From Elusimicrobiota bacterium (GTDB taxonomy: Bacteria > Elusimicrobiota > Endomicrobiia > Endomicrobiales > Endomicrobiaceae), in the NCBI GenBank assembly GCA_017529005.1, contig JAFXOB010000225.1, positions 1 to 50,940 of the forward strand: a stretch of 50,940 bases of DNA, written 5' to 3'. Shown here in pieces: positions 693 through 48,726 of this stretch. A program made the translations under genes and the position numbers. The first letter of the stretch is position 1. Each line of letters opens with the position of its first letter. A model generated the notes under the pieces. That model did no database searches. It was not told the DNA's origin and was given only the letters and a program-made list of their open reading frames with translations.

Positions 693-700
693 CAAAATAG

Positions 701-825: not shown

Positions 826-832
826 CATAACA

Positions 833-11816: not shown

Positions 11817-11873
11817 TTCATTTAACAAATGCTTATAGTTTTTAGAATATTTTGTTTTACAAAAAGTTACAAA

Positions 11874-11906: not shown

Positions 11907-11932
11907 TAACTAAAATTTTGTAAAGTAAAATT

Positions 11933-13156
11933 TTAGTTATATCTAATTGCTTCTAACGGTTCCAATTTTGATACCTGATATGCCGGATACAATCCTGCAA
12001 TTATTGTTATAGCAAAAGCACATAAAGCAACTAAACAAATATCCGCAGGTATTATCATAACCGGTAATCTGTCAACATAATATACACCCTGCGGAAGCTT
12101 AAATATTTCAAAATTTTTAAGTCCGTAACTTATTAAAAGGCCTGATGCCAAGCCCAAAACAGTTCCGACTGTTCCTACAATAATTCCTTCATAAAAAAAT
12201 ATTTTTGATATTGAAAGTTTTGAAAAGCCCATAGCAGATAATATTCCTATTTCTTTTGCTTTTTCCACACTAAGTAAAAGGATATTTGAAATTATGTTGA
12301 ACGAAGCAACTATAATAATTAAAGCAAGTATTATAAACATCATAATCTTTTCAAGTTTCAACGCGGAAAAAAGATTTTTGTTCATCTCTATCCAAGATCT
12401 TGCTCTGTAAGGATACCCTAATTTTTTCTGCAAGTCTTTTGCATATTGTGTAGCTTTATCAAAACTTGACGTTCTTATTGCTATACCGCTTACACCGCCG
12501 TCAAAAGAAAACATGTCAGCTGCCGTTTTTAAATCTATGTATGCAAGGGTTGTATCGTATTCGTACATTCCGGAATGAAATATTGCTTCTATTTTTAATT
12601 TTTTCATTTTCGGAACGGAAGATAACTGACTCGGAAACATTACTATAACATAATCACCTACTTCGGCATGAATTGAGTTTGCAAGTTCGTTGCCTAAAAT
12701 AATTCCGGTATCACTTATTTCATCATCCAACAAAATACTGTCTTTTGAAAGTTTGGATTTTAAATCCATAAGTTTATCTTCGGATTTAAAATCTATACCT
12801 TTTACCAAAGCTCCGGTACCTTGAGTATATCCCTGTTTTTTTATTATGGATTGACCGAATATGTAAGGTGCTGTTGCTTTTACATAATCAAAACCCGATA
12901 CCTCATCCGTTATTATCTCATAATTATCAAACAAAGTAACATCTGTTCTTGTTAAATAAATGTGCGGTTGTATTCCCAAAATTTTTGCTCTGATATCTTG
13001 TTGAAAACCGCTCATTACAGACAATGTTATAACCAAGGCACAAACACCGAGTGTAGTTCCGCCTATAGCAATAAGTGTGGTTAAAAAAGCAAAAAAACCT
13101 TTTTTTCTTGCTTTAATATATCTGTAAGCGATAAAAAGTTCTGCTGATCCTAACAT
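11933..13156 (-). CDS. Lipoprotein-releasing system permease (LolC/LolE/MacB-FtsX family)
   Basis: 407 aa with an N-terminal TM, a large periplasmic loop and a C-terminal FtsX-type 3-TM bundle ([21 protein letters not shown]...). It is adjacent to lolD, and its ATG overlaps the lysS stop region by 7 nt. Confidence 0.8.
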
Positions 13157-20317: not shown

Positions 20318-21436
20318 TTATGTATTCCTTATATATATCTGTCCGGGCATAGCCTTTATCAAACCGTTAAGTTCCAAGTCCAACAATATTGTAGAAATTT
20401 CCGAAACATTAACATTTGACTTCAAACTTATTTCATCCAAAGACATACCAACAGTTGAAGATTGTATCATTTTTAGAATATTTATACTACTTTGTGAAAT
20501 TAAAGGCAAATTTTTTTCCGGTTCTTTTTTCTTTTCTTTGGATTTCTTTTTTACCAAATCATTCAATAAAGGTATTTGTTCAACAACATCTTCCGGTTTT
20601 AATGCAACAAAAGCTCCCTGTTTTATTAAACTGTTAGGACCTTGTGAATATTTTGAAAATATAGGACCGGGAACACCAAACACATCTTTGCCGTACTCAC
20701 AGGCAAGTTCTGCAGTTATTAACGAACCGCTTTTTTCTGCCGCTTCTATAACTATTGCAGCAAGCGACAAAGCAGCAACAATTCTGTTTCTTCTCGGAAA
20801 ATTAACCGGTAAAGGCCTTCTTGTTAAAGGAAATTCACTTATAACGGCACCTTTTTGAGCAATTTCATCCTGAAGTTTTCTGTTTCCGGACGGATAATAT
20901 TCCAACAATCCGTTACCTAAAACAGCAATAGTTTTACCGGAATTTTTTAATGTGGACATATGATCTTGTGTATCTATACCGCTTGCCAAACCCGATATTG
21001 TTGTTATTGAATTTTGTGCAAAATATCTGCAAAAATTTTCTGTTACCGTTATGCCGTAATTTGTTGGTCTTCTTGAACCTACAATTGAAACGGAAAATAT
21101 ATCGTTTTTATCAATTTTTCCTTTTACATATATAACAGGCGGAAAATCATATATATTTTTAAGTTGATCCGGATATTCTTCATCTAAATATGTTAAGATT
21201 TTTATATTGTTTTTTTGGGCTAACAAAAGCTCTTTATTTGCAACTTCCAAACTTGAAAGGTCTTTTATTGCTTTGGCGATTTTGTTCGATACAAAACCGA
21301 CAGACTGAATCTCTTTTATATCGGCTGTTAAAATATTGTTAACATTACCGAAATAATTTACCAAAGATATAAATTTTTGGGGAACTAAATCTATAACAGT
21401 ATTTAAGGCAACTATAGATAATTTTTCATTATCCAT
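20318..21436 (-). CDS. dprA: DNA processing protein DprA (Smf)
   Basis: Rossmann-like DprA core (IVGSRRPT, GLASGIDTQDH, GVPGPI) and a C-terminal winged-helix-like tail. The start ATG shares one base with the stop of the upstream ankyrin gene. Confidence 0.9.
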   Translation of the reverse strand: MDNEKLSIVALNTVIDLVPQKFISLVNYFGNVNNILTADIKEIQSVGFVSNKIAKAIKDLSSLEVANKELLLAQKNNIKILTYLDEEYPDQLKNIYDFPPVIYVKGKIDKNDIFSVSIVGSRRPTNYGITVTENFCRYFAQNSITTISGLASGIDTQDHMSTLKNSGKTIAVLGNGLLEYYPSGNRKLQDEIAQKGAVISEFPLTRRPLPVNFPRRNRIVAALSLAAIVIEAAEKSGSLITAELACEYGKDVFGVPGPIFSKYSQGPNSLIKQGAFVALKPEDVVEQIPLLNDLVKKKSKEKKKEPEKNLPLISQSSINILKMIQSSTVGMSLDEISLKSNVNVSEISTILLDLELNGLIKAMPGQIYIRNT

Positions 21437-22038
21437 TATTTTTTCTTAGCACCGGCAGCAGTAAGAATATCTTTTACCATATCGCCGTATCTTTCATTAT
21501 TTTTAGCATAATCAAAAGCACAATAACCATCATAATCTTTTGCATTAATATCTGCACCTGCATCTATAATTAAAGATACTATTGCCGGGGTATCCATATT
21601 TTCACATGCCAACATCAAAGCAGTTGTTCCATCATTTGATTTAACATTAACAAGAGCACCTGCTTTTAAATGTTCTCTAAAAACTTTTTCATAACTATCA
21701 TACTGTGCCGCATACATAAATGCCGTTCTACCTTTATTATCAGTCAAATTAACTCTCGCGCCATAAGATAATAATAATTGCATCATTTCAACACTTGAAT
21801 TTCCCTGACAAGCTGCCATCAAAGGAGTTCTGCCTTGATCATCTTGTCCGTTAACATCCTGACCGGCAAGAATTGCATCTTTTACTTCACTAAAGGAACC
21901 AAACTCACATAAATCATGTAATGTTTGTTGAACTTCTATAGGTTCATTAGAAAACTTACTTCTTGCCTGCACGGTATTAACGGCATATACAAACAAACTT
22001 AGTATTATTAAAGTAACAAATATTATATTTTTTCTCAT
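21436..22038 (-). CDS. Secreted ankyrin-repeat protein
   Basis: Signal peptide (IIFVTLIILSLFVYAVNTVQA). At least four ANK-like units (GRTPLMAA..., GRTAFMYAA..., GTTALMLAC..., GYCAFDYA...). GGAGG RBS. Confidence 0.85.
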   Translation of the reverse strand: MRKNIIFVTLIILSLFVYAVNTVQARSKFSNEPIEVQQTLHDLCEFGSFSEVKDAILAGQDVNGQDDQGRTPLMAACQGNSSVEMMQLLLSYGARVNLTDNKGRTAFMYAAQYDSYEKVFREHLKAGALVNVKSNDGTTALMLACENMDTPAIVSLIIDAGADINAKDYDGYCAFDYAKNNERYGDMVKDILTAAGAKKK

Positions 22039-33692: not shown

Positions 33693-35150
33693 CTAATTAT
33701 TAAAAAGTTTATAATCTACATTTTCCGTATCAAAATCCAACGGATTAAAGGCAGATGTTGCTATCAAATACCAACCTGTTGAAGACGAAGAGCAAACCCA
33801 AGTTCCGTTTTTACCTCTCGGTATTTCCCACTCATTTGCAAAGGTTGTAAATATTTGTTTATCTGTCGGTCTTTTGGATGTATACGGTAAAGATTTATCT
33901 ATCAAATTTATTATATTTGCTGCTTTTTCCATATTACTTAAAATTTCTATCGCTTGATTTTTATATTGTTGTGCTAAATCTTTCTTACCTGTTTTTTTTG
34001 CATATTGGGACATAGTTTGTAATGCCGTAATATGAAAACCTGTTCCTTCGAACCAAATCATTCTGTAATTTTTTCTTCTACCCTGCTGGTTGGTAAAATC
34101 GTAACCTTTTATTTCAATATCATCAATTTTATCCGTAACCAAATAATTGTCTTCGGCAAACTGCATCATATCAAAAGGATTTATTCCCAATTCTTCTAAT
34201 CTTTTAGGAGTAACTGCAGGTATAGTCCAAGAAACAGTATCTAAAGCATCCGTTCTGTCTAATCCGTTAGCATTATAACCCATATTAAAAGATTTTTTCT
34301 TTTTATCAAAAATAAGTTTTGTAAGCCATCTTTCAATATTTGACATTTCTTCATCTATATCTTTTAAAGAATATTTTGCTTTTTCGAAATAAGATTTAAC
34401 ATCTTTATTTGAATTGTTATAAATATATTTCAACATCCTTAACACCGCATAATAATCTATAACATTTTCCGTTGAATATACTGTAGACCAATCTGGTGGT
34501 TGCCAACCGTATCCCATACTGGGGCCACCTTTTTTCCCGTCAGAAAAATTATAATGTTTTATTTCTTTTGCCCATTTAACCATATCTATAAGAAACGGAA
34601 CAAAATCTGTTTTACCTGTTATTGCAGTATATTGTAAAACCGCAACAGCAATCCACATATTAGGGCCCAAATGAACTCTGTTACCGTCTATACCGGGTTT
34701 TAAACCAAAACGAGTTCTTTGCATATCTGTTCTGTAAACATTACACAAACCGATATTATCACCTTTTGAAATAGCAAATTCTCTTTGAAAAAGTCTAAAC
34801 AATTTTTCCGCTTTTTTATATTGCCCGGATAATATATAACTTAACGATGCTATAGAACTGTCATAAACAAAAGCCTGTGCATCAAGCACACCTTTTGAAC
34901 CGACTATAAAAGATCTTGTAAACAAATCGTAAGTATAGTTTGATGTTCCTCTAAAACTTTCTACAAGTCCGTTAACCGAAGAAGTTTGCCTGTCATAAAA
35001 ACTTGCCGTTCTCATTTGGTGTCTGTAAAAATCTTTATTCAGAGTATCGGTAGAAAATTGTTCTCTGTAAGACTTATCTACTATATCAATACAATAAGCC
35101 GTTGAAAAAACAAAAAGAATTGTTATAACAAAAAAAATTATTTTTTTCAT
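33693..35150 (-). CDS. Secreted hypothetical protein, possibly an alpha/alpha-toroid (glycoside-hydrolase-like) fold
   Basis: Signal peptide (IIFFVITILFVFSTAYC). Helix-rich, with Trp/Tyr-rich repeating segments (GPNMWIAVAVLQYTAITG, ENVIDYYAVLRML, WFEGTGFHITAL). The fold assignment is a guess from pattern only. Confidence 0.7.
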   Translation of the reverse strand: MKKIIFFVITILFVFSTAYCIDIVDKSYREQFSTDTLNKDFYRHQMRTASFYDRQTSSVNGLVESFRGTSNYTYDLFTRSFIVGSKGVLDAQAFVYDSSIASLSYILSGQYKKAEKLFRLFQREFAISKGDNIGLCNVYRTDMQRTRFGLKPGIDGNRVHLGPNMWIAVAVLQYTAITGKTDFVPFLIDMVKWAKEIKHYNFSDGKKGGPSMGYGWQPPDWSTVYSTENVIDYYAVLRMLKYIYNNSNKDVKSYFEKAKYSLKDIDEEMSNIERWLTKLIFDKKKKSFNMGYNANGLDRTDALDTVSWTIPAVTPKRLEELGINPFDMMQFAEDNYLVTDKIDDIEIKGYDFTNQQGRRKNYRMIWFEGTGFHITALQTMSQYAKKTGKKDLAQQYKNQAIEILSNMEKAANIINLIDKSLPYTSKRPTDKQIFTTFANEWEIPRGKNGTWVCSSSSTGWYLIATSAFNPLDFDTENVDYKLFNN

Positions 35151-35153
35151 AAT

Positions 35154-35193
35154 TTAAAAAAAGACACTATCTCTTAAAAAAGAGATTGTGTCT
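35154..35193 (-). terminator. Strong intrinsic terminator closing the 41.5-35.2 kb envelope operon
   Basis: The minus strand reads AGACACAATCTCTT-TTTT-AAGAGATAGTGTCT (14-bp stem, 1 mismatch) followed by TTTTTT. Confidence 0.75.
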
Positions 35194-35221
35194 ATATTAT
35201 ATCATTTATAAATATAAAAAA

Positions 35222-35575
35222 CTAACTGACAGTAACATCTACGGAAACTGTTACTCCCTGGCAAGACAATTTTATTGTTCCGCTACCTGTAGTTTCAGCC
35301 GTAAACTCTGTTTCTTTAGAACTTGCAGAATTAAAAGAACCTAAATCTGAAGGATCTACGGACCAATTAACCGGTTCATCTATTTCTTCCATTTTTATGT
35401 TTCTTATAATTGCTTTAAATTTATATGTATTACCAACACTCATTTCACCGGATTGACTGTCAACCTGTTCTATCTGTAAAACCATAGTATTGTCTGTAAG
35501 CTTATCTCTTTTAGTACAAGCAACAAAACAAACTGTTAAACAAATAAATAAAGATAATAATAAAATTTTTTTCAT
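35222..35575 (-). CDS. Small lipoprotein with bacterial Ig-like (Big_2-like) domain
   Basis: Lipobox (CFVAC). VNWSVDPSDLGSFNS...TAETTGSGTIKLSCQGVTVSVDVTV resembles the Big_2 signature. Confidence 0.7.
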   Translation of the reverse strand: MKKILLLSLFICLTVCFVACTKRDKLTDNTMVLQIEQVDSQSGEMSVGNTYKFKAIIRNIKMEEIDEPVNWSVDPSDLGSFNSASSKETEFTAETTGSGTIKLSCQGVTVSVDVTVS

Positions 35576-35590
35576 ATATTCTCTTCCAAA

Positions 35591-36076
35591 CTAAATAGAA
35601 AATCTGGTTTTATATCTTAACATAACACCATCTTTTCCATAAGTATCAACATTAAATTTTTCAAAAGCATATTTTTTTGATTCTTTCTTTGCAACAAAAT
35701 AAGCATCCACTATTGCAAATATCCATGTTGCAACCGCAATACAACCTAAAGTTCTTGAAGTATTTAAATCTTTTTCATAATCATCGTAATATGAAGAGTC
35801 TCTTGCGCCTAATCTTTCGTATTTCACATAATCACCATCAGCTTTGGCAAGATAATAAAATGTTCCGAAAACAGAAACCGCAAATACACCGAATACTATC
35901 CAAGCTTTTGTTTTTTGATTGTTCCAACTTTGTCCCCAACCCGGCATAACAGCAGAACGTAATGCAGCATTAATTTCCGTATATTCGGAAAAATCACAAG
36001 TAAGTGTACATGCGCTTGCATTCGTACAATTTAACAACATAACAGAGATAATAATTGCTATAAATTTTTTAACCAT
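35591..36076 (-). CDS. Membrane protein with PGWGQ motif (DUF5683-like), two TM helices
   Basis: Signal/lipobox-like N-terminus. SAVMPGWGQSWNNQKTKAW is followed by a TM segment, an acidic Tyr-rich loop and a second TM segment. Confidence 0.65.
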   Translation of the reverse strand: MVKKFIAIIISVMLLNCTNASACTLTCDFSEYTEINAALRSAVMPGWGQSWNNQKTKAWIVFGVFAVSVFGTFYYLAKADGDYVKYERLGARDSSYYDDYEKDLNTSRTLGCIAVATWIFAIVDAYFVAKKESKKYAFEKFNVDTYGKDGVMLRYKTRFSI

Positions 36077-36078
36077 AA

Positions 36079-36735
36079 TTAATCTTTAGTAAACCTTATA
36101 TCATCTAAATAAATTGTTCCGCCATTAGTTATACCATCCGATACCAACGATATTGCTATATCATATTCTATTTCAGTCATATCCTCAATATTTGGAAGAG
36201 GAATTACAATTTCAGTCCAATCTGCAGAAGAAATCTCATTTGCTTTTATTTCACGAACAACCCAAGGGCTGTCACTGCCGTTTCTCGGAATCTCTATTTT
36301 AAATGAACAATTATTATATAAAGTACCTCTTATCCAAAATTTTAAATTAGTATAATCACTGGTAGATAAATTAACAATTCCACCAGGATATTCCGTTGCC
36401 ATTAAACCAAAGCCGAAATAACTGCTGCCCGGATCATTAGAATTACCAACCCAAGTCAACTGCATACAATTTCTTCCCATTTTAGGATGATATTTGCATG
36501 CAAAATCAAGTTTTACTTTATCCCAATCCGCACAACCGGTATAACTTTCCCATTTAAACGGAGCCAACGAACCTTTTGTATTTATTTCATCATCATAAAG
36601 ATACCAAGGATCCGGCCAACTATCAATTTTTGCGGGAATTCCCAATAAAGCACTTACCGGATATCTTTCACATGAAGCAAAACATATTAAACAAATCAAA
36701 CAAAAAGATAATAATTTTAAAAAATTTTTATTCAT
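36079..36735 (-). CDS. Lipoprotein, divergent member (P4) of the tandem CBM-like beta-sandwich family
   Basis: Lipobox (CFASC). It shares the family landmarks NC.Q.TW, LKFWIRG, W.EI.IPL and the C-terminal IYLDDIRF. It overlaps the P3 stop by 8 nt. Confidence 0.8.
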   Translation of the reverse strand: MNKNFLKLLSFCLICLICFASCERYPVSALLGIPAKIDSWPDPWYLYDDEINTKGSLAPFKWESYTGCADWDKVKLDFACKYHPKMGRNCMQLTWVGNSNDPGSSYFGFGLMATEYPGGIVNLSTSDYTNLKFWIRGTLYNNCSFKIEIPRNGSDSPWVVREIKANEISSADWTEIVIPLPNIEDMTEIEYDIAISLVSDGITNGGTIYLDDIRFTKD

Positions 36736-37366
36736 ATCTTATATCATCCAAGAAAACAGTACATCCTTTAGGATTATCTTTCTTAGAAAAAACTATACAA
36801 AAACCACCGGAAATTGAACTTAAATCAGATTTTGATAAATCTATAGTATATTTTTTCCAACTACCTGTCAATTTTATAACTTTAAGCCAAGCAACATCCG
36901 AATCACTAAACTGTCCTGAAATTCCGCCGATTTTTACTTCGGATATAACTTCGTAACCATTTGCACCTTTTGCCCAAAAAGTTAATTTTGTTGCTCCGGT
37001 TAAATTATATCCGCCTTTTTTATCGCCCCAATTGTTTACGGGATGTTGCCAATAAATCCCGGCCCACTGTTTCAAGCCTTCTGCATTATATCTCATTTTT
37101 ATACAACTTTTACCATCATGCGGTTCCTGACTGTAAGATTGATCCAACTCTAAATTTGCAACATCTCCCATCCAACCGGACGGTGCATAATGATTTTTAG
37201 GGGACATAAAATCTTCATAAACATAAAAAGGTTCAAATGAGCTCGCAGAAGTTTCACTTCCGCCTGCATTATCAGCATCCGTTTTTACTGTTTTTGAAGA
37301 AACACATGCACAAACAAAACAACTTAATAAAATAATTAATAATAAATTTTTTATATTCCCTTTCAT
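36728..37366 (-). CDS. Lipoprotein, member P3 of the tandem CBM-like family
   Basis: Lipobox region (LLSCFVCAC). FEPFYVYEDF, APSGWMGD, CIKMRY, WAGIYWQ, NNWGDKKGGYNLTGATKLTFWAKGANG, FLDDIRYE. The track start at 37378 is TTG, so ATG 37366 is used. Confidence 0.85.
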   Translation of the reverse strand: MKGNIKNLLLIILLSCFVCACVSSKTVKTDADNAGGSETSASSFEPFYVYEDFMSPKNHYAPSGWMGDVANLELDQSYSQEPHDGKSCIKMRYNAEGLKQWAGIYWQHPVNNWGDKKGGYNLTGATKLTFWAKGANGYEVISEVKIGGISGQFSDSDVAWLKVIKLTGSWKKYTIDLSKSDLSSISGGFCIVFSKKDNPKGCTVFLDDIRYE

Positions 37367-37410
37367 TTTCAAACCCAAACAAAAACTAATTTTTATTTTT
37401 ACTACATAAA

Positions 37411-38070
37411 CTATTCATACATAATATCATCTAAATAGATTACAAATCCTTTCGAATTATCATCTTTAGATGCTGCAAAACAGAATCCGCCGATTATATA
37501 ACTTAAATCTTTTCCTTCTAAATCAATAGAAACTTGTTGCCATTTTTTCGTAAGTTCAATCGGTCCAATTGCTGCTGAATCCGAATCGGGATATTCACCT
37601 GTTATTCCACCCATCTTAAATTCAGCTATTTTTTCACCGCCGTTTGCTCCTCTTACCCAAAATGTCAATTTTTTTGCTCCGGTTAAATCAAATCCACCCT
37701 TTTTATCGCCCCAATTATTTGCCGGTTGTTGCCAAAATATACCTGCCCATCCTGCACCTTGTGCCATTTCCGCGGTATATGTAATTTTTATACAATTTTT
37801 GCCGCTCTTCGGACTATCCGAACAAGACTGATCAAGTTTTATATCACCGAAATCACCCATCCATCCGGATGGTGCAAAATGATTTTTTTGGGACATAAAA
37901 TCATCATAAACATAAAAAGGCTCAAAAGAGTTTGAAACACTTGTACTTGCAGCTGCCTTGTTTGTATCCGCACTTGATTCGTCTTTTGCAGCCTTTGAAG
38001 AAGCACATGCACAAATAAAACAACCTAAAAGTACTAATAAAGATAAAATTTTTAATTTATTATTTTTCAT
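37411..38070 (-). CDS. Lipoprotein, member P2 of the tandem CBM-like family
   Basis: Lipobox region (LLGCFICAC). 130 of 156 aligned C-terminal residues are identical to P1 by hand count. Ends YLDDIMYE. Confidence 0.85.
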   Translation of the reverse strand: MKNNKLKILSLLVLLGCFICACASSKAAKDESSADTNKAAASTSVSNSFEPFYVYDDFMSQKNHFAPSGWMGDFGDIKLDQSCSDSPKSGKNCIKITYTAEMAQGAGWAGIFWQQPANNWGDKKGGFDLTGAKKLTFWVRGANGGEKIAEFKMGGITGEYPDSDSAAIGPIELTKKWQQVSIDLEGKDLSYIIGGFCFAASKDDNSKGFVIYLDDIMYE

Positions 38071-38087
38071 TTTTTTTCCTGTTTTAT

Positions 38088-38108
38088 GGGGCAGGATTTC
38101 CCTGCCCC
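38088..38108 (-). promoter_or_regulatory. GC-rich intercistronic hairpin between P1 and P2
   Basis: GGGGCAGG-ATTTC-CCTGCCCC forms a perfect 8-bp G/C stem in otherwise AT-rich DNA. On the minus strand it is followed by AUAAAACAGGAAAAAAAAUG with no U-run, so it is not a canonical terminator. Confidence 0.55.
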
Positions 38109-38122
38109 AATAAATTTATTAA

Positions 38123-38752
38123 TTATTCATAAATAATATCATCTAAATAGATTATGAATCCGTTTGGATTATCATCTTTAGATGCTGCAAAACAGAATCC
38201 ACCGATTACATGGCTCAAATCTTTTCCTGTTAAATCGATTGAATATTTCTGCCATTCTTTTGTTAATTCGATTGGTCCTACTGCTGCTGAATCTGAATCA
38301 GGATATTCACCTGTTATTCCACCCATTTTGAATTCAGCTATTTTTTCACCACCGTTTGCTCCTCTTGCCCAGAATGTTAATTTCTTTGCTCCGGTCAAAT
38401 CATAGCCGCCTTTCTTTTCTCCCCAGTTGTTTGCCGGTTGTTGCCAGAATATACCTGTCCATCCTGCACCTTGTGTCATTTTTGCACTATATGTAATCTT
38501 GATGCAGTTGTTACCACTTCTTGGACTTTCTGTGCATGCTTGGTTCAATTTCAAATCACCAAAATCTCCCATCCATCTAGATGGTGCAAAGTGATTGTCT
38601 TTTGAAGCATTTTCTACATAAACTGCAAATGTTTTAAAAGAAGATGCTCCTTCAGATTTTGCTGCTGTTTTTGCTTTAGGTGCTGCAAATGCTACACCTG
38701 CTACTCCTGCCATGAAAACGGTTGCTACCAACAAACTCAATACCTTTCTCAT
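38123..38752 (-). CDS. Secreted (non-lipoprotein) member P1 of the tandem CBM-like family
   Basis: SPase-I type signal (LLVATVFMAGVAGVAFA-AP) with no Cys. Strong AAGGAGAGGG RBS. Noticeably less AT-rich codon usage than its neighbours. Ends YLDDIIYE. Confidence 0.85.
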   Translation of the reverse strand: MRKVLSLLVATVFMAGVAGVAFAAPKAKTAAKSEGASSFKTFAVYVENASKDNHFAPSRWMGDFGDLKLNQACTESPRSGNNCIKITYSAKMTQGAGWTGIFWQQPANNWGEKKGGYDLTGAKKLTFWARGANGGEKIAEFKMGGITGEYPDSDSAAVGPIELTKEWQKYSIDLTGKDLSHVIGGFCFAASKDDNPNGFIIYLDDIIYE

Positions 38753-38764
38753 TTTCCCTCTCCT

Positions 38765-41533
38765 TTATTTATTTTTTCGTAGATCATACTCAACATTGGC
38801 TTCTTTTGTTGTCTTGTTGCCTTCTGTATCTTTCTTCAATATGAGTATTTCTACTCTTCTGTTCAATTCTCTTCCTGCAGCAGTCTTGTTCGTTGCAACA
38901 GGATATTTTTCACCCAAGCCGACTGTAGACATTCTCTTTCTGTCAACGCCTAATTTTACAAGATAATTTGCTACGGATCTTGCTCTTCTTTCCGACAAGC
39001 CTTGGTTGTACTCGTCCGAACCATAAGCATCCGTATGACCTTCAACACTAATGTCGTTACGAACGTATGAATTCAATATTCTTGCAGCTTCTCTAAGTAT
39101 CTTATCTGCACTCGGTTTAATATTTGTCTTATCAAAGTCAAAGAGAACTTTAGATGAGAACGACAACTTAAGTCCTCTGTCGGTTTCAACAACTTTAAGT
39201 TCAGGAGTAATTAATCTTACTTTACAAATATTTGATTTTGCTATATTACCAAACGTATCACTAACTATCAATTGTGCATCATAAACATCATCAGGCAAAT
39301 ATCTGTTTTCAAAATCTTTACCGTTCCATTTAACCGATTCAGGACATTCTCCCAAACCGTTAAATGTATATACAATTCTTGAATTCTTATCAAGCAATCT
39401 GATTTCCCACGTTGCTATACCGTTTTCATCATAAGCCAAAGGATACAATGTTGTTTTTTGACCTTTTGAAGGCATAATTACATCCGGATCCAAACTTAAA
39501 GAACAAGTCGGCAATGTTTCATCTTTTTCAATTCTAGGCTTTGTTCCAAATTTAAATAATCCTTCAAATATAAGTCTAACATAAGTTCTTACTTCATCAA
39601 AAGTACCAAGTTCGTTTCTGCTTTCAGCTACACCATCTATCTTTTTTACAACATAATAATCTGTTTTTCTTCCGCCGACATAATCAACACCTGCTATTAT
39701 ACATTTTGTAAATTCTCTTGAAATTTGAGCATAATAAACTTCATCATAAGTGGCACCGTAATCTCTGTGCCAATCATCCGGTCCCCAAACATCTTTTCCA
39801 TATCCCATTCTAAATCTATAAGGTGCTTTATTAATTAATAAATTAGTTTTAAAAAACCCTGTTATTTCTTTTAAGAAAACTTCCTGACTTGTATAAGCTG
39901 TAGAATATGTTGCAGGATCTTCTCCGACTTCAAAATCATAAACAACTTCATAATCATCAAAAAATATTCTTGTTAAAAATATTAAGGTTCCTAAATATCT
40001 GTCTGTAGGTAAAGCACCGTAAACAGGAAGTCCGGAATAGTTTTCCCAAACTACTTCACCATACTCGTTTCTGCCGACTTGTCTGTCTGTTCCACCCATA
40101 TACCTGGTTAATTTAACTTGTGCTGCAAAGGAAAGTAATGCATCTTCTTCCGGGTTTAAATTCCAAGATTCGAGAGTATTCGGTTCATATTGATAAAACC
40201 ATGTGTCCGGCGTAGGATCATATGTAAACGTAAAAGTAAACTCATCTGTTTCTCTGTTATCCCATCCGGTAGGTTCATTTCTCCACCATACCCAGAAAGG
40301 TTGATTCGGACCTCTTGCTTTAATTAAGTCCGGTCCCCATTTACTTGATCTTGCAGGTATTGCTTGCAATAAAGGTTTTTGTCTCATATATGCAAAATGT
40401 CCTGTAAGATTAGGACCTATGCCCTGTTGAACAGAAAAATCAAGTTTTTGTTTGTTTCCGGCTGAAAGGCCTTCATATATATATCCCATAGTAACTACAT
40501 CAAACCACAAAGATTTAGGTATTGAAACTTTAGCTGCTCCACCGAAAGCATCTCCCATATTTGTTCTGTCTTGCTCAATCAATAAGTCTGTTCCGTTAGT
40601 TCCCTGATTATTAGGTACATTTCTTTCAGCAACATAATCGTAAGTATCACCTATTCTGAAAGGTCTAAACTTCGCACCTAATTGCAATGTGCTGCCGCTG
40701 ATATTAAAATCCGTACTAACTTCGGCAGTTCTCATTCTTTCACCTTCATCACCGTAAGGAATTTCATGATCTACATAAAAGAAATTTATATTACTGCCGA
40801 ATATATTTTTATATTTTAAATAAAAACCTTGTTTATAATCAGTAATAGGTTCACCATATTGCAATTCAATATTACCGGCTTTTCCTTCCATATTAAGTTG
40901 ATACCACTCAGGCATTGCTCTTCCGGTTATCATCAACAAATTATAAGGATCTGTTTCTGCCTGATAAATATTGAACATATCTCCTTCATAACCCCAATGG
41001 TAATGAAATTGATTTCTGTTATATTGTAATTTTGCCCAATCATTATGAATTTCTGCTTTTGCCGTATTCCATGAAAATTTTGGAATTATTTGTCCGTCAT
41101 CGAACATTCTGTGAGGATGGTTAACTGTTGTCCAATATCTTGAAGCATAATCCGCAATAAAACACAATCCGAATTGTGCACTTGCCCATGTTGCCGGTTT
41201 AAAAGCAACATCCAACCACATTGTTTGGCCCCAACGATCTTTCCAATCTTGGTCTTTTAAATTATTATCTGTAGAATCGTACCTGAAATAATTATTCATT
41301 AAATGAGGTGTTGTGTACCAACCATCGCCTCTTTTATTGAATATGCCCTCAAATAAAAGCTCTGCTCTTACGGCAATATCATATACATCTAAATATTCCG
41401 CATCCACAAAACCCGGAGTTTGTCGAAAATCGCTTCTGGGTTCAACCGCAGAACCAATACCTTTTCCGGCTGTGGCTAAAACAGGAATAAATAAAAAAAT
41501 TGCGATAATAAAAGACAATCTTTTGAAGCTCAT
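38765..41533 (-). CDS. 922-aa outer-membrane protein: signal peptide + about 640-aa unrecognised aromatic/Gly-rich (barrel-like) region + FlgD-Ig-like module + OmpA_C peptidoglycan-binding domain
   Basis: Signal peptide FIIAIFLFIPVLATA. C-terminal OmpA-like domain (VLFDFDKTNIKPSADKIL..., ISVEGHTDAYGSDEYNQGLSERRARSVANYL, NRRVEILI). The preceding WNGKDFENRYLPDDVYDAQLIVSD matches the FlgD-Ig style pattern. The N-terminal region ends ...FEGLFKFG. Confidence 0.85.
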   Translation of the reverse strand: MSFKRLSFIIAIFLFIPVLATAGKGIGSAVEPRSDFRQTPGFVDAEYLDVYDIAVRAELLFEGIFNKRGDGWYTTPHLMNNYFRYDSTDNNLKDQDWKDRWGQTMWLDVAFKPATWASAQFGLCFIADYASRYWTTVNHPHRMFDDGQIIPKFSWNTAKAEIHNDWAKLQYNRNQFHYHWGYEGDMFNIYQAETDPYNLLMITGRAMPEWYQLNMEGKAGNIELQYGEPITDYKQGFYLKYKNIFGSNINFFYVDHEIPYGDEGERMRTAEVSTDFNISGSTLQLGAKFRPFRIGDTYDYVAERNVPNNQGTNGTDLLIEQDRTNMGDAFGGAAKVSIPKSLWFDVVTMGYIYEGLSAGNKQKLDFSVQQGIGPNLTGHFAYMRQKPLLQAIPARSSKWGPDLIKARGPNQPFWVWWRNEPTGWDNRETDEFTFTFTYDPTPDTWFYQYEPNTLESWNLNPEEDALLSFAAQVKLTRYMGGTDRQVGRNEYGEVVWENYSGLPVYGALPTDRYLGTLIFLTRIFFDDYEVVYDFEVGEDPATYSTAYTSQEVFLKEITGFFKTNLLINKAPYRFRMGYGKDVWGPDDWHRDYGATYDEVYYAQISREFTKCIIAGVDYVGGRKTDYYVVKKIDGVAESRNELGTFDEVRTYVRLIFEGLFKFGTKPRIEKDETLPTCSLSLDPDVIMPSKGQKTTLYPLAYDENGIATWEIRLLDKNSRIVYTFNGLGECPESVKWNGKDFENRYLPDDVYDAQLIVSDTFGNIAKSNICKVRLITPELKVVETDRGLKLSFSSKVLFDFDKTNIKPSADKILREAARILNSYVRNDISVEGHTDAYGSDEYNQGLSERRARSVANYLVKLGVDRKRMSTVGLGEKYPVATNKTAAGRELNRRVEILILKKDTEGNKTTKEANVEYDLRKNK

Positions 41534-41541
41534 ACTAGCTT

Positions 41542-41570
41542 ATTATATTTTTTCAATAATTTAAAGTCAA
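41542..41570 (-). promoter_or_regulatory. Near-consensus sigma70 promoter of the envelope operon (possible leaderless transcript)
   Basis: On the minus strand: TTGACT (41570-41565), 17 nt spacer, TATAAT (41547-41542). Only 8 nt (AAGCTAGT) separate it from ATG 41533, and there is no Shine-Dalgarno sequence. Confidence 0.6.
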
Positions 41571-44346: not shown

Positions 44347-44766
44347 TTAGGTGTTCTTTTCAATACCACTCGGTATATCTATTGCTAAACCGAATTTAGA
44401 AACTCCGGCTTTTTTGGCTTTATCCATAACATTTACTACCAAATCGTATTTTATCTCTTTATCACCCTTTATAACAACCGGTCTATCCGGATATTTTCTT
44501 ATCTTATCTTTTATAGCCTGCTCTACATATTCATTATGAAATTGAGTTCCGTCAACATAAATAAAACCTTCTTTATCTATTGTTATCTCTATAATTTTAT
44601 CTTCACTTCTCTCTGTTGTTTCAGCGGCTTCAGGCAAATCCACCTTTATTTGATGCTGTGATAACATAGGTGTTGTAATCATAAATATTATAAGTAAAAC
44701 AAGAACAACATCCGTAAACGGGGTTATATTTATATCTGCAACAACTTTTTTTCTGTTATTTGCCAT
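44347..44766 (-). CDS. tolR: TolR / ExbD-family protein
   Basis: INITPFTDVVLVLLIIFMI TM signature. 139 aa. 11-nt overlap with tolQ. Lies in a Tol-Pal context. Confidence 0.8.
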   Translation of the reverse strand: MANNRKKVVADINITPFTDVVLVLLIIFMITTPMLSQHQIKVDLPEAAETTERSEDKIIEITIDKEGFIYVDGTQFHNEYVEQAIKDKIRKYPDRPVVIKGDKEIKYDLVVNVMDKAKKAGVSKFGLAIDIPSGIEKNT

Positions 44767-45412
44767 TTTTTGATATTCCGATTTTTATTGCCATATCCAA
44801 AATTTCTTTTAATGCAGAAATTGAATATTCCATTTCAACTACAAAATTATCTATAGCTTTTGTAAAAAAATTATATGCCGCAACGGCAGGAATTGCAACG
44901 GATAAACCTGCAGCAGTTGCAATTAAAGATTCCGAAACACCGCCGATAACAACGGAAATACCTCCGGAACCTGCCAAAGAAATATCATGAAAGGAACGAA
45001 TGATACCTAAAACAGTTCCAAATAATCCTATATACACGGATACGGCACCTATAGTAGCAAGAATCGTAGTATATTTTTCTAATTTTACCGTTTCTTTTGT
45101 AATCGTTCGTCTCATAGAATCTTCAACATTAGAATCACCAAAATCGGAAAATCTAATAAGTCCGGCTATGATTGTATTAGATACCGGAGTATTCAATAAT
45201 TGACAATAATCCAAAATGCCGGTAATAGAACCTTTCATCAACGAATTTTTTATTTTTGTCAATAACTTATCTGTTTTTATCTTTGACTTTCTCTTAAATT
45301 CAATAATTTTCAATAATATTATCGAAACAGATAATATAGATAATGCAAATAAAAGATATAATGTCCAACCGCCGATAGCCAAAATTTCAAAAAAGCTTTT
45401 CCCTTCAAACAT
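44756..45412 (-). CDS. tolQ: TolQ / ExbB / MotA-family proton channel
   Basis: Three TM segments. Conserved C-terminal region GLFGTVLGIIRSF...ESLIATAAGLSVAIPAVAAYNFF. Confidence 0.8.
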   Translation of the reverse strand: MFEGKSFFEILAIGGWTLYLLFALSILSVSIILLKIIEFKRKSKIKTDKLLTKIKNSLMKGSITGILDYCQLLNTPVSNTIIAGLIRFSDFGDSNVEDSMRRTITKETVKLEKYTTILATIGAVSVYIGLFGTVLGIIRSFHDISLAGSGGISVVIGGVSESLIATAAGLSVAIPAVAAYNFFTKAIDNFVVEMEYSISALKEILDMAIKIGISKNGK

Positions 45413-45439
45413 AATTATTAAATTCCTTTTTATAAACTA

Positions 45440-46735
45440 TTATAATCCATATGACCATGTGGGAGTAAAAGATTCACCGGATATATCTACAAGTTTTCTG
45501 ACTCCCGATCCATCCATACCCATAATATAAATTTCACTCTTACCTGAACGAGTTGAAGAAAAAGCAATGAATCGTCCGTCTTGTGACCAACAAGGATTTT
45601 CATTACTTCCCTGTCCCTCGGTAAGTCTTATAATTCTTTGTTTTGGTAAATCATATAAAAATATATCGAAAGTTCCGTCATATTTCATTGTAAATGCTAT
45701 TTTATCTCCTTTTGGTGACCACATAGGAGAATCACAATTACCTTTAGTTGACAATCTTCTTAGATTTACACCGTCAATGTCCATTATGTAAATTTGAGGA
45801 TATCCTGCTCTATCCGATATAAAAACAATTTCCTTACCGCTTGGAGAAAAAGAAGGACTTGTATCTATATACCTGCCTTCCGTTAATCTTCTTATAACGA
45901 CTCCGCTGCTGTCCAACAGATATAAATTAGGATAAACACCTCTTGACAATGTTGCAACCATTGTTTTTCTGTCCGGAGAAAAAGTTGTAGGAGAATTTAA
46001 TCCTTGAATCGTAGATAAAGCTTTTCTTTTATTTTTTGCAATATCCAAAATAAATAAATCCGGATTGTTATACAAATAAGATGTATATATTATTTGAGGA
46101 CTGTTAGGCACCCATTTAGGCAAAACATTAAGTCTGTTGTCTTTCGTTAATCTTCTTAAATTATAACCGTCATAATCCACAAGATATATTTCTTTAAACT
46201 TTGTATTATTGTTTATAAAAGCTATTTTTGAACAAGCAACCCCTTCTTCACCTGTAAATCTCTTTACAACCTCATCATTTATTCTGTGAGCAATATATCT
46301 GTAATTATTAGCAGAACCGCTATATCTGTCTTCCCATATAAGTTGCTGACTTTCTATATCGTACAATTTAACATCAACAATAAGTTTTGTTTGATCTATT
46401 ATGGAAATTGTACCGGTTAATAATACCGAAACACCCTTTTCACTCCAATAGGAAAATTGTGAATCCAAATCAAACTTATAAGAAGAATTAGCAACGGCAA
46501 CATTGAAATGTCTTGATAATATTAAATCATTTTCAAGTGTTTCTTTAAAATCTCTCGACATATTCATTTCTTCAAAAAAACCGTTTTTTGGAACAAACTC
46601 GGAAAGTCCTATACTGGCCCTGCTGCCTGTACCTGACAAAGATAAATAAATATCGTTTTCTGCACAAACATATGAACAGAAAAAATTTAAAAATAAAAAC
46701 ACAACTAAAAATTTGTTAATGAAATTTAAATTCAA
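45440..46735 (-). CDS. tolB: TolB periplasmic beta-propeller protein
   Basis: Signal peptide, N-terminal TolB domain, then repeated ...SP.(F/W)SPDG(K/R).I(A/V)F.S.R.G...IY... blades. The start codon at 46735 is TTG, and there is no in-frame ATG before residue 57. Confidence 0.85.
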   Translation of the reverse strand: MNLNFINKFLVVFLFLNFFCSYVCAENDIYLSLSGTGSRASIGLSEFVPKNGFFEEMNMSRDFKETLENDLILSRHFNVAVANSSYKFDLDSQFSYWSEKGVSVLLTGTISIIDQTKLIVDVKLYDIESQQLIWEDRYSGSANNYRYIAHRINDEVVKRFTGEEGVACSKIAFINNNTKFKEIYLVDYDGYNLRRLTKDNRLNVLPKWVPNSPQIIYTSYLYNNPDLFILDIAKNKRKALSTIQGLNSPTTFSPDRKTMVATLSRGVYPNLYLLDSSGVVIRRLTEGRYIDTSPSFSPSGKEIVFISDRAGYPQIYIMDIDGVNLRRLSTKGNCDSPMWSPKGDKIAFTMKYDGTFDIFLYDLPKQRIIRLTEGQGSNENPCWSQDGRFIAFSSTRSGKSEIYIMGMDGSGVRKLVDISGESFTPTWSYGL

Positions 46736-47438
46736 AGTAAACTCCTAAATAATTATCTTCATAACTTGATGGTAATGGTGCAAACGGGCTCGCCAACTCT
46801 ATTGCTCTTATAGCATTTTGATCAAAATTTTGATCGGAAGAAGATTCTTTTACTTTTATATCGTAAACTGAACCGTCTCTTGCTATTTTAAAATAAATTA
46901 CGGCCCTATATGTAGATGTAACGCTCGACCACTGCCAATATTTACCAATTTTTTTTACTATCGTATTTGTATAATAAGAATATTTAAAATTCTTATTTTC
47001 CAACATTATGCCTTTATTTGAAGAAATAATTGAACTGCTGTTTTCAGCACTTTGCGGTTTTTCTTCTGCAGGTTTTTCTTCAACAACCTTTTCTTCAACA
47101 GGCTTTTCTTCTTTCTTCTCTTTTTCTTTATTCTTTACTACAATAGTATCTTTCTTTGCCGCTTTTTTCTTCTTTTTCTTCTTAACAACAGGTTTTTCTT
47201 CCACAGGTTTTATTTCTTCTACCGGTTTTTGCTCTTCTACGGGCTTAACAACCTCTTTCGGTTCAACCGATTCCGGCACCTTTGTTTGAACCGGAGAATA
47301 AAAAGAAACTTCAAAAGGAACCTGTATAAAAACATGTTTTTTACTATTCTTGTAAAAAATAGCAAAAAAAACCAAACTATGAATGACTATTGATAAAACA
47401 ATACAAGGAACTAAACTAAAACTATTTATTCTTCTCAT
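46716..47438 (-). CDS. tolA: TolA / TonB-type energy transducer
   Basis: N-terminal TM, a Pro/Glu/Lys linker with KPVEE repeats plus K7, and a C-terminal TonB_C/TolA_III-like domain (YRAVIYFKIARDGSVYDIKV...AIRAIELASPFAPLP). It sits between cpoB and tolB. Confidence 0.65.
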   Translation of the reverse strand: MRRINSFSLVPCIVLSIVIHSLVFFAIFYKNSKKHVFIQVPFEVSFYSPVQTKVPESVEPKEVVKPVEEQKPVEEIKPVEEKPVVKKKKKKKAAKKDTIVVKNKEKEKKEEKPVEEKVVEEKPAEEKPQSAENSSSIISSNKGIMLENKNFKYSYYTNTIVKKIGKYWQWSSVTSTYRAVIYFKIARDGSVYDIKVKESSSDQNFDQNAIRAIELASPFAPLPSSYEDNYLGVYFEFKFH

Positions 47439-48111
47439 TTGTATAAATTTTTATTTTTTCTTTTGCCGTAAAAGCTTCAGCACTTTTCGGATAATCTTTT
47501 ATTATAGATTGCAAAACGACAATAGAATCTTCTTTTTTCCCCAATTGTTCCAAACATAAAGCCATCTTCAATCTTGCAGAAGATAAAAACTCTGAATCAG
47601 AATATAATTCTCCGATTTTCTTGTACTCTTCATAAGCTTCGGCAAATTTGTTTTGAGAATACATAGCCTCTGCAATATAATACTGAGCCTGTACAGCCAA
47701 ATCATGATCTTTATATTGTTTCAAAAAAGATTTAAAACCCACTATAGCGACTTCATATTTACCCATCAAAAAATCGTTATACGCATTTTCATATAATTTA
47801 GAAGGAAGCGGTACATTTTTAGCATTATCATTTTTTTGGTTTTTAACGGTTACTTCAAGATCTTTTAAATCTTGAGATATCTTTGCCATTTTTTTATATA
47901 ATTCCTGAATTGATGCATTTGCAGTATCCGTATTTACTAAATTTTCTTCAAATTTAGAATATACCTCTGCTTGTTTTGTTTCTAAACTTGCACATTTTAT
48001 TTGAAGTTTAGAAACTTCTTTTTTCAATTCATCAATACTGGACTGCGATGTTGTCGCAGCACAACCGCAAAACATAAACAACGGTAATAATAAAACTATT
48101 TTTTTATTCAT
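47422..48111 (-). CDS. cpoB: CpoB (YbgF) coiled-coil + TPR protein
   Basis: Lipobox-like FCGC, an N-terminal coiled coil and C-terminal TPR repeats (YNDFLMGKYEVAIVGFKSFL..., AQYYIAEAMYSQNKFAEAYEEY...). It is adjacent to pal. Confidence 0.75.
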   Translation of the reverse strand: MNKKIVLLLPLFMFCGCAATTSQSSIDELKKEVSKLQIKCASLETKQAEVYSKFEENLVNTDTANASIQELYKKMAKISQDLKDLEVTVKNQKNDNAKNVPLPSKLYENAYNDFLMGKYEVAIVGFKSFLKQYKDHDLAVQAQYYIAEAMYSQNKFAEAYEEYKKIGELYSDSEFLSSARLKMALCLEQLGKKEDSIVVLQSIIKDYPKSAEAFTAKEKIKIYTNEKNK

Positions 48112-48119
48112 TTATCAAT

Positions 48120-48650
48120 CTATCTTATAACTTTTGTTTCTGCTCTTCTGTTTTTTGCCCAACCGGCTTCATTATGTCTGTTATCTTGAGGCATTTCTTC
48201 ACCATAAGATATCGTAGCTATTCTATTAGGAGCAATTCCCAATTGAACATAATATTCTTTTACTTTTACAGCTCTTTTTTGTCCTAATGCCAAATTATAT
48301 TCAATCGTTCCTCTTTCATCACAATGTCCTTCAACAACAACATTTAAATTAGGATTTGCTTTTAAATATTTTACATTTTCTTTTAATATTCTTAATACAT
48401 TATCCGGAATTTTGCTGCTGTCAAAAGAAAAATATACTGTTCCTAAAGAAATTTTTTGTTCAAATTCAACTCCTCTCAAAGATGGTTCTTTAGAAAATTC
48501 TTCCGGCTCCAATAAAGCAGAATCCAAATCGGAAATTTGCTCTACTTGATCTTGATATTCTTCATCTTCCGGTGCAACGGTTTGTTTTTTTGCACAAGAA
48601 CTAACAACTAAACATAAAAATAGAAAAGCAATTACTAAATAATTTTTCAT
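48120..48650 (-). CDS. pal: Peptidoglycan-associated lipoprotein Pal (OmpA_C domain)
   Basis: Lipobox VVSSC. OmpA-like domain (VYFSFDSSKI..., VVEGHCDERGTIEYNLALGQKRAVKV, NRRAETKV). AGGAG lies 7 nt before ATG 48650. The track extension to 48698 overlaps the promoter. Confidence 0.85.
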   Translation of the reverse strand: MKNYLVIAFLFLCLVVSSCAKKQTVAPEDEEYQDQVEQISDLDSALLEPEEFSKEPSLRGVEFEQKISLGTVYFSFDSSKIPDNVLRILKENVKYLKANPNLNVVVEGHCDERGTIEYNLALGQKRAVKVKEYYVQLGIAPNRIATISYGEEMPQDNRHNEAGWAKNRRAETKVIR

Positions 48651-48696
48651 TACATCGCTCCTATAACTAAATTTTATACATTTTATATTGAGTATC

Positions 48697-48726
48697 ATTA
48701 TATATAATAAGTTTATTTATTGTCAA
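48697..48726 (-). promoter_or_regulatory. Sigma70-like promoter of the pal-cpoB-tolA-tolB-tolQ-tolR operon
   Basis: On the minus strand: TTGACA (48726-48721), 18 nt spacer, TATAAT (48702-48697). Confidence 0.55.

Follow-up and report, generated by a model that had tools for sequence, protein, structure and literature searches.

An Elusimicrobiota operon pairing an undescribed wall-tethered beta-barrel with CBM-like proteins, a candidate apparatus for beta-glucan capture and import

Outer-membrane uptake of polysaccharides is known almost entirely from the SusC/SusD-type, TonB-dependent systems of Bacteroidota, supplemented by a few small sugar porins. Here we describe a locus that points to a different solution, in which an undescribed large beta-barrel is paired with small proteins resembling carbohydrate-binding modules (CBMs). 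The locus, an operon of seven genes, lies on the minus strand of a 50,940-nucleotide stretch (hereafter, the window; contig JAFXOB010000225.1 of assembly GCA_017529005.1) from an Elusimicrobiota bacterium of the Endomicrobiaceae. A homologue of its barrel is shared by flavobacterial laminarin loci, for example the polysaccharide utilization loci of Muricauda lutaonensis (PMC13188888) and of Formosa agariphila (with the regulator BguR; bioRxiv 10.64898/2026.01.10.698779). Published accounts of such loci and of BguR (the two above and PMC6484121) list the gene in question as ‘GH2’ or ‘GH158’ (that is, by glycoside hydrolase (GH) family); the laminarin-locus papers treat it as a plain glycosidase and leave the barrel unmentioned, and our literature searches found no description of the barrel domain or of a barrel joined to a CBM module. 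On balance, we lean towards the reading that the operon, together with a further gene at 33693–35150, encodes the envelope components of an apparatus for beta-glucan capture and import that works without SusC/SusD or a TonB-dependent receptor, the glycan being most likely of the beta-1,3-glucan type.

The gene at the head of the operon (38765–41533) encodes a 922-aa protein in which AlphaFold2 and Pfam place a signal peptide, a beta-barrel of roughly 26 strands, an immunoglobulin-like (Ig-like) sandwich and an OmpA_C domain, in this order. In the AlphaFold2 model (alignment of 34 homologues; predicted local distance difference test (pLDDT) score of 80.5), residues ~52–661 are built as about 28 antiparallel strands (DSSP), within a barrel domain placed at residues ~40–665 (39539–41416). 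Hydrophobicity alternates along the predicted strands, giving one hydrophobic face, and Foldseek matched this part to generic outer-membrane barrels only (ChiP, FimD and PfeA; template-modelling (TM) scores of 0.2–0.37); model, fold search and hydrophobicity thus agree on the large barrel that a preliminary description of this DNA had proposed for a 640-aa region. That description could assign the region to no characterized system, and neither could we: sequence searches of Pfam, NCBIfam and PDB found no relatives of it and matched OmpA_C only, as did a PDB profile search with the 34 homologues. An exhaustive single-sequence search of 1.84 billion representatives recovered barrel relatives in 77 clusters only. 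About 37 homologues are full length, those with a named source being from Endomicrobia (Elusimicrobiota), and the window protein shares 91% identity with its counterpart in Candidatus Ruminimicrobiellum ovillum, which assigns the window to a rumen member of the Endomicrobiaceae. Conservation among homologues does not extend to the N-terminal ~40 residues. A loop signature (PRG..PFxV..NRE[TA]..[FY]DPTPxTWFY..EDA) is conserved from Elusimicrobiota to Bacteroidota and is present in full in the window sequence, which aligns with the Elusimicrobiota, barrel-only and GH-fused members of this undescribed family.

The OmpA_C domain (residues ~781–899; 38837–39193), also recognized in the preliminary description, is matched by PF00691 over residues 797–892 (8e-26; 90.7 bits versus a gathering cut-off of 27.2) and by PDB profiles down to 1.6e-36, and Foldseek aligns it with the corresponding domains of YfiB, OprF, TagL and Pal at TM scores of 0.75–0.93. 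It retains the motifs TD..G....N..LS..RA and NRRVEI, and peptidoglycan binding is predicted. Between barrel and OmpA_C lies a linker domain (residues ~676–774; 39212–39508) that AlphaFold2 secondary structure presents as an Ig-like beta-sandwich. It had been likened to the Ig-like module of FlgD; the sandwich is borne out by the model, and FlgD_ig (PF13860) is precomputed on 4 of the about 37 full-length homologues, but the window protein itself has no match to PF13860 at E ≤ 0.1.

The barrel gene is followed by four paralogues, P1 (209 aa; 38123–38752), P2 (219 aa; 37411–38070), P3 (216 aa; 36728–37378, with a possible alternative start at an ATG at 37366) and P4 (218 aa; 36079–36735), which had been grouped as one family of CBM-like proteins, one soluble and three lipid-anchored. 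This grouping is upheld on each count. Identity to P1 is 69% for P2, 48% for P3 and 22% for P4, and all four terminate in (Y/F)LDDI(I/M/R)(Y/F). P1–P3, which we term A-type, carry the motifs NHFAPSGWMGD and WQQPANNWG, whereas P4 is of a B-type, with orthologues in loci L001 and L002. P1 has a signal of the signal-peptidase-I type, and P2 (LLGC/ICAC), P3 and P4 (in which C-E-x-x-P follows from the lipobox cysteine) have lipoboxes. The AlphaFold2 model of P1 is a jelly roll (pLDDT 82.9) with its top Foldseek matches to CBM30 (1wmx/2c24), CBM8 (7t7y), CBM11 (6r3m/1v0a) and CBM29 (E values of 1e-6 to 2e-5; TM scores of 0.55–0.7). Sequence provides a bridge to the same families: the C-terminal domains of long orthologues of the 117-aa lipoprotein encoded at the end of the operon (b2; see below) match the HMM (hidden Markov model) of the P family at 4e-15 to 5e-10 and also pass the Pfam cut-offs for CBM30 and CBM_11 (34–41 bits versus 27). 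As these domains match both models, the P family is tied to CBM11/30 by sequence as well as fold, the sequence link of P1–P4 themselves being transitive, through the long b2 orthologues only. NCBIfam ‘choice-of-anchor J’ matches to P1–P3 fall below the cut-off (E of about 1e-4; 21–22 bits versus 30) and seem to be only a sign of the jelly-roll fold. By predicted fold, then, P1–P4 branch off, as divergent members, from the beta-glucan-binding fold of CBM11 and CBM30, and binding is predicted for them.

Barrel and P proteins belong together well beyond this genome, as a family-wide test of their co-occurrence, proposed in the preliminary description, makes clear. Across 80 loci from species-representative genomes, open reading frames (ORFs) were called and then labelled with HMMs (homologues of the 117-aa protein being labelled by a single-sequence search rather than an iterated HMM). 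A P gene directly follows the barrel gene in 31 of 32 Endomicrobiia loci and in 19 of 21 loci in which the barrel is fused to an enzyme. The Endomicrobiia loci also hold a gene for a DUF5683 protein (28/32), b2 (29/32) and, downstream, X485 (22/32), the gene at 33693–35150 in the window. The genes keep a set order: barrel, soluble A-type P, A-type lipoprotein, B-type lipoprotein (C-E-x-x-P), DUF5683 protein, an optional membrane-anchored P, b2 and X485. Both the order and the signal type of the paralogues are conserved, and the B-type lipoprotein in third position is kept; the window operon has one A-type copy more than the usual Endomicrobiia set, P3 being the extra copy relative to most loci. 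Between the window and Endomicrobium proavitum, P1 is 73% identical (80% over the 172 aa aligned by BLAST) and the barrel protein 42%. In a Proruminimicrobium-like clade (L020:2-7003; also L021–L023), a protein of >2300 aa with a C-terminal OmpA_C lies directly upstream of the barrel operon, as does a 925-aa lipoprotein without a Pfam match.

The link to beta-glucan is provided by the genes that accompany this module in relatives. Of 20 more distant Elusimicrobiota-type loci, 17 have a GH158-like gene directly upstream of the operon; among the relatives in Endomicrobium (termite-gut, environmental and free-living), the operon is preceded by one to four genes of the GH2_C type whose products are exported, the best PDB matches of the GH158-like gene being GH158 structures (9oro, 1.4e-10; 6pal, 5e-8), and ahead of these genes lies one for a 1070-aa cytoplasmic GH161 beta-1,3-glucan phosphorylase (765 bits to 9qqk). 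A sugar ATP-binding cassette (ABC) importer and GH81 are found in L002 and L045, and GH94, GH5 and a solute-binding protein in L051. In L047, L049 and L051 the barrel lacks the Ig-like and OmpA_C domains, which are instead carried, together with a P domain, by a separate signal-peptide protein; this domain swap suggests that barrel and P act together and that this P is periplasmic. Omnitrophota have tandem-P proteins, 46–65% identical to P1, between a sugar ABC importer and GH158-like genes. The two-domain P proteins of Candidatus Omnitrophota include L003:10001-11191 and L005:3693-4886, and none of the >2400 P-family members found is annotated.

Outside these phyla, the barrel forms the C-terminal ~600 aa of a protein of ~1050 aa in Flavobacteriia, Chitinophagales, Ignavibacteria, Gemmatimonadota, Lentisphaeria and Marinimicrobia (HMM E of about 1e-50, with the loop signature shared), the N-terminal part being a GH2_C/GH158-like catalytic domain. 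The exhaustive single-sequence search missed the flavobacterial fusion proteins, which were reached by profile search alone. In Flavobacterium gelidilacus, a gene for a 937-aa Y_Y_Y regulator precedes the fusion gene, which is followed by P + Big_2 lipoproteins, GH16, GH149 (1950 bits to 6hq6) and GH17. As this gene set matches the published laminarin loci, the barrel appears to be hidden in their ‘GH2/GH158’ gene. The earlier statement that the operon matches no named system consequently needs qualification: its synteny is found in none and we found no paper that describes it, yet homologues of its parts sit in laminarin loci of a published type. A sequence search of the PDB, started from the P + Big_2 lipoprotein of flavobacteria, was blank and gave no link to the laminarin-binding CBM of Christiangramia forsetii.

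Since these partners are catabolic, we infer that transport is inward. The opposite arrangement, in which a beta-glucan or another envelope glycan made by the cell itself would leave through the barrel, with the CBM-like proteins attending to the growing polymer and the glucanases trimming it in the manner of BcsZ or PslG, recalls exopolysaccharide operons, which typically join a porin, a hydrolase and binding modules, and a PMT_2 (ArnT-like) glycosyltransferase gene does lie directly upstream in the rumen clade to which the window belongs. We nevertheless consider export improbable, and the case for it weak, as a synthase or polymerase was found in none of the about 80 loci and the recurring partners are solute-binding-protein-dependent importers, GH161, GH149 or GH94 enzymes, a LacI regulator and a BguR-type regulator. 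The glycan nutrient capture envisaged in the preliminary description is therefore favoured by the comparative data, and is now narrowed to beta-glucans.

On the basis of these associations, we suggest that the 922-aa protein would form a large outer-membrane barrel of roughly 26 strands, pinned to peptidoglycan through its Ig-like and OmpA_C domains, in which the conserved in-folded loops (PRG..NRET..DPTPxTWFY..EDA) would offer the glycan a passage. P1–P4 would be divergent CBM11/CBM30-type groove-binding modules that grip beta-glucan chains, among them P1, the soluble and most conserved member and the only one with a strong ribosome-binding site (AAGGAG), which no other gene of the operon has. 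The A-type lipoproteins P2 and P3 would stand at the periplasmic face of the barrel, where they would catch the incoming chain, hand it over to glucanases and stop its back-diffusion (that is, act as a binding ratchet), and the B-type lipoprotein P4 would possibly be the surface-exposed member. Later steps, as seen in relatives, would fall to GH158-like endo-beta-1,3-glucanases (separate, or fused to the barrel N terminus) and to GH16, GH17 and GH81 enzymes, and the final steps to a sugar ABC importer and cytoplasmic GH161, GH149 or GH94 phosphorylases. The proposed topology follows from the architecture: OmpA_C implies a periplasmic C terminus of the barrel, an even number of strands would bring its N terminus, and hence a fused GH domain, to the same side, and the P + Ig + OmpA_C proteins and membrane-anchored P variants (found, for example, in E. 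proavitum) point to a periplasmic location of some P proteins. A stronger claim would be that the barrel founds a new class of glycan translocon without TonB or SusD, wall-tethered in Elusimicrobiota and GH158-fused elsewhere, with chains pulled in by a CBM11/30-like binding ratchet; we advance it tentatively, and as doubtful in its entirety.

Several observations weigh against beta-glucan import, or against parts of it. In the window’s own clade (barrel at least 59% identical), a GH158-like gene occurs within four genes upstream in 0 of 15 loci, and the 51-kb window contains no glycoside hydrolase, sugar transporter or phosphorylase; because neither the window nor its clade has adjacent beta-glucan enzymes, the link to beta-glucan is, for this organism, by homology only, and a diverged, more structural role in the rumen clade is conceivable. 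The number of transmembrane strands predicted by the model is approximate (roughly 26), and the barrel may contain a plug. P1–P4 have no Pfam match at E ≤ 0.1 and so fall below every CBM model. E. proavitum was reportedly isolated as a glucose fermenter, and we found no report in the literature of its growth on laminarin. The flavobacterial P lipoproteins, which begin C-E-R-D-L-S-E-D, carry acidic residues after the lipid cysteine, like surface-exported lipoproteins of Bacteroidota, so that the periplasmic placement may not extend to every member of the P family.

This last point leads to a different arrangement with the same function, similar to that of Sus systems, in which the lipoprotein paralogues would dock beta-glucan onto the barrel from the cell surface and P1 would be secreted or surface-associated. 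Three of the paralogues as well as b2 are lipoproteins, acidic residues after the lipid cysteine are the export signal of Bacteroidota surface lipoproteins, and the B-type motif C-E-x-x-P is acidic in the same way as the flavobacterial start; B-type and flavobacterial lipoproteins may indeed be surface-exposed. Those laminarin-binding proteins of marine Bacteroidota that have been characterized are lipoproteins of the cell surface (bioRxiv 10.1101/2023.09.07.556657), and, in a hot-spring population of Elusimicrobia, labelled cellulose particles enriched the cells about 500-fold (PMC7031533), an attachment that fits surface binding and provides circumstantial support for beta-glucan binding by members of the phylum. 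Such a display on the surface, which the preliminary description had favoured for the paralogues, is at odds with the P + Ig + OmpA_C proteins, which have plain signal peptides and must be periplasmic, and with the P variants that have N-terminal membrane anchors, so that at least part of the family points to the periplasm. By analogy with other barrels that have N-terminal domains, the fused GH domain would also be periplasmic, on the same side as OmpA_C, and we know of no pathway for surface export of lipoproteins in Elusimicrobiota. We thus rank the periplasmic binding ratchet first and the surface arrangement second, as a possible but unlikely account.

The absence of adjacent beta-glucan enzymes from the rumen clade would also suit a non-nutritional role, at least in that clade, in which the barrel–Ig–OmpA protein would be the main porin and wall tether of Endomicrobiia and the paralogues would be structural or coat proteins. 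There, the operon stands alone beside the Tol-Pal cluster and the PMT_2 transferase, P1 combines very high conservation with a strong ribosome-binding site, and Endomicrobiaceae reportedly lack several standard components of the outer membrane (PMC11257099). Set against this are the ties of barrel and P to beta-glucan enzymes in three architectures and at least seven phyla (including a glucanase fusion), the patchy distribution of the module in Bacteroidota, which own porins and tethers, and the presence in the window of a separate Pal and a small OMP_b-brl protein. Furthermore, the locus decays in L048 (Endomicrobium sp. Po218_bin113, a termite-gut metagenome-assembled genome; 10001–12273 and flanks), where at least four ORF fragments are left of the barrel gene and two of the GH158-like gene upstream of it; such pseudogenization fits an accessory nutritional role. 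We regard the structural role as quite unlikely, and nothing was found in support of the coat or S-layer-like assembly that the preliminary description had offered as an alternative to nutrient capture.

A barrel of this size with lipoprotein partners also recalls LptD–LptE, and the operon might replace the lipopolysaccharide (LPS) translocon, with the roughly 26-strand barrel and the small lipoproteins as analogues of LptD and LptE. LptD is reported absent from all Endomicrobiaceae despite their LPS synthesis genes (PMC11257099), and the window holds LolCDE-like genes. Yet no OstA/LptD or LptE domain was found (Pfam and NCBIfam), the partners have a CBM fold, the homologues in Flavobacteriia, which bear LptD, are accessory, glucanase-fused and inside laminarin loci, and a locus that is pseudogenized in L048 fits poorly; this weak reading seems to us very improbable. 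Identities as a type IX secretion system (T9SS), pili, Bam or Tol were rejected, the operon products being without matching domains; the Tol-Pal genes 3–7 kb upstream (44756–48698) are a cluster of their own, which neighbours the operon in the rumen clade alone.

As to the operon itself, the preliminary description had outlined seven co-directional genes between a near-consensus promoter and a strong terminator, all encoding exported products and none a recognizable enzyme, ATPase or regulator, and most of this outline stands. The seven minus-strand ORFs are where it had placed them, and the gaps from the barrel gene to the 117-aa gene (12, 52, 32, −8, 2 and 15 nt; P1 starts 12 nt past the barrel stop codon) range, as it stated, from an 8-nt overlap to 52 nt. 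A signal peptide or lipobox can be read in all seven sequences (signal-peptidase-I type in the barrel protein and P1, lipoboxes in P2–P4 and the 117-aa protein, and a signal peptide with two hydrophobic helices in the 161-aa protein), and Pfam and NCBIfam searches of the seven products found no enzyme, ATPase, regulator, Plug, TonB-receptor or SusD domain. The terminator, an intrinsic hairpin at about 35157–35193 followed by U7, has a folding energy of −18.2 kcal/mol (z = −5.74 versus shuffled sequences). The promoter is less certain: the putative sigma-70-like site TTGACT-17-TATAAT (41570–41542) is the best and sole 11/12 match in 33–43.5 kb, but promoter-like sites as a class are at chance in this DNA of 31–35% G+C (52 found versus 52.1 expected), and the −10 hexamer ends 8 nt from the barrel ATG, where a Shine–Dalgarno sequence is absent, which would mean either a leaderless transcript or a real promoter elsewhere. 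The limit of seven genes did not hold, as a conserved eighth gene sits past the terminator.

This eighth gene, X485 (33693–35150), encodes an exported 485-aa protein of unrecognized fold. Although past the terminator, it is part of the unit because its counterpart in E. proavitum (52% identical) occupies the same position and because, in the distant high-G+C locus L085, it lies among three P-family genes beside a LacI regulator, the barrel being absent nearby. Its 119 homologues are all annotated ‘hypothetical’. Across 18 orthologues, no Pfam match was consistent (scattered TPR, one six-hairpin), a PDB profile search was blank and no SusD-family match was found; we consider X485 a candidate undescribed glycan-active enzyme. 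Two smaller genes complete the operon. The 161-aa membrane protein (35591–36076), first noted for its PGWGQ motif, is indeed a DUF5683 protein (PF18935; 30.2 bits versus a cut-off of 26.7, residues 36–88); the aligned part is limited to the first third of the model, in which the PGxGQ motif and the next helix fall, and the model is matched by 24 of 24 orthologues (best, 6.5e-11). Its layout comprises a signal peptide, the motif RSxxxPGWGQ, two helices and a beta-hairpin-like tail; in the orthologues this end (...L.Y..KF) is conserved and resembles the C-terminal signal of outer-membrane proteins, despite the two predicted helices. The 117-aa lipoprotein b2 (35222–35575) corresponds to the N-terminal Ig part of a protein that is 277–409 aa long in other lineages, where it carries Big_2 (6/20), CBM30 (7/20) or CBM_11 (6/20). 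Its description as a Big_2-like lipoprotein is therefore right as to the lipobox and, through these homologues, indirectly supported as to the family; the window protein itself has no match to Big_2 (PF02368) at E ≤ 1, the best among its homologues being 7.7e-5 over the homologous N-terminal region; judging from sequence, it is a truncated Big_2 + CBM protein (that is, an Ig remnant).

Elsewhere in the window, the Tol-Pal cluster (44756–48698, minus strand) encodes TolQ, a probable TolR, TolB, a TonB_2/TolA-like protein, a CpoB-like TPR protein and Pal with OmpA_C. Between it and the operon lie genes for a PHP-like membrane protein and, directly upstream of the operon, the PMT_2 glycosyltransferase, an adjacency found only in the rumen clade (L007–L011), where these genes take the place of a GH158-like gene. 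LolD- and LolC/E-like genes (ABC_tran and MacB_PCD/FtsX; 11157–13156, minus strand) indicate that lipoprotein sorting is present and could serve the four lipoproteins of the operon. Positions 1–3634 (24% G+C), with a Phage_CRI-type replication initiator (818–1843) and a large serine recombinase (1976–3634), are probably a small integrated mobile element. The largest gene of the window, a 1548-aa ORF (5534–10180, minus strand), has no Pfam match at 1e-5. A 200-aa ankyrin-repeat protein is encoded at 21436–22038 (minus strand); ankyrin-repeat proteins are unusual in bacteria and often tied to interaction with eukaryotic hosts, and rumen Endomicrobia are related to protist symbionts.

The barrel and its P partners are conserved from rumen and termite-gut Elusimicrobiota to the binding proteins of the Omnitrophota type and to marine Flavobacteriia, and the finding of widest reach is the presence of this barrel, so far unrecognized, within the ‘GH2/GH158’ genes of laminarin loci in flavobacteria. 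Laminarin being one of the commonest glycans in the sea, what that gene does matters for models of carbon turnover there. If the barrel does found a new class of translocon without TonB or SusD, polysaccharides would enter the cells of at least seven phyla by a second route that has gone unnoticed, also within the marine laminarin loci through which a large share of algal carbon passes. The locus further offers a first functional entry point to the cell envelopes of Elusimicrobiota and Omnitrophota, phyla with few cultured members. The proposal is testable, with E. proavitum available in culture and the marine flavobacteria that carry the fused gene amenable to genetics.

Among known systems, the flavobacterial laminarin loci resemble the window operon in that the barrel gene is directly followed by a binding-protein gene, and their adjacent lipoproteins start with the domain of the P family, to which Big_2 is added. 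They differ in that their barrel is fused to a catalytic domain and lacks the Ig-like and OmpA_C domains, that DUF5683 and X485 are absent (0/21 loci of the fused type), that their binding proteins are long and multimodular, and that they include GH16, GH149, GH17 and, in some, SusC/D. Sus-like systems likewise combine an outer-membrane barrel with glycan-binding lipoproteins and, as do the window’s relatives, glycanases, an importer and a sugar-responsive regulator; the window barrel, by contrast, is not a TonB-dependent receptor (no match to Plug or TonB_dep_Rec at E ≤ 0.1) and is predicted to be wall-tethered by OmpA_C, none of the seven products matches SusD, and each binding protein consists of one small CBM11/30-like module, with a periplasmic location probable for some of them. 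OmpA and OprF share with the 922-aa protein an N-terminal barrel followed by a periplasmic, peptidoglycan-binding OmpA_C. Whereas the barrel of OmpA has 8 strands in about 170 aa, that of the window has roughly 26 predicted strands in about 620 aa, is unrelated in sequence, is separated from OmpA_C by an inserted Ig-like domain and is encoded at the head of a conserved operon of CBM-like proteins.

CBM11 and CBM30 bind beta-1,4- and beta-1,3-1,4-glucan chains in a groove, and their clostridial cellulosomal members have in common with the paralogues the beta-jelly-roll fold, a C-terminal ...DD(I/V)... strand and intermediate sequences. The paralogues differ from them as free-standing exported proteins or lipoproteins rather than enzyme appendages, and in the unusual conservation of the A-type (46–65% identity between Elusimicrobiota and Omnitrophota). 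LamB/ScrY, ChiP and CymA are comparable in the proposed energy-independent passage of chains through a substrate-adapted barrel, and ChiP is among the best Foldseek barrels; the likeness is generic (TM scores of about 0.2–0.37), and the window barrel is much larger, wall-tethered by prediction and provided with dedicated binding partners. At the level of the system, the locus is a polysaccharide-utilization theme in a new form rather than a wholly new type of system, and its components are largely undescribed families.

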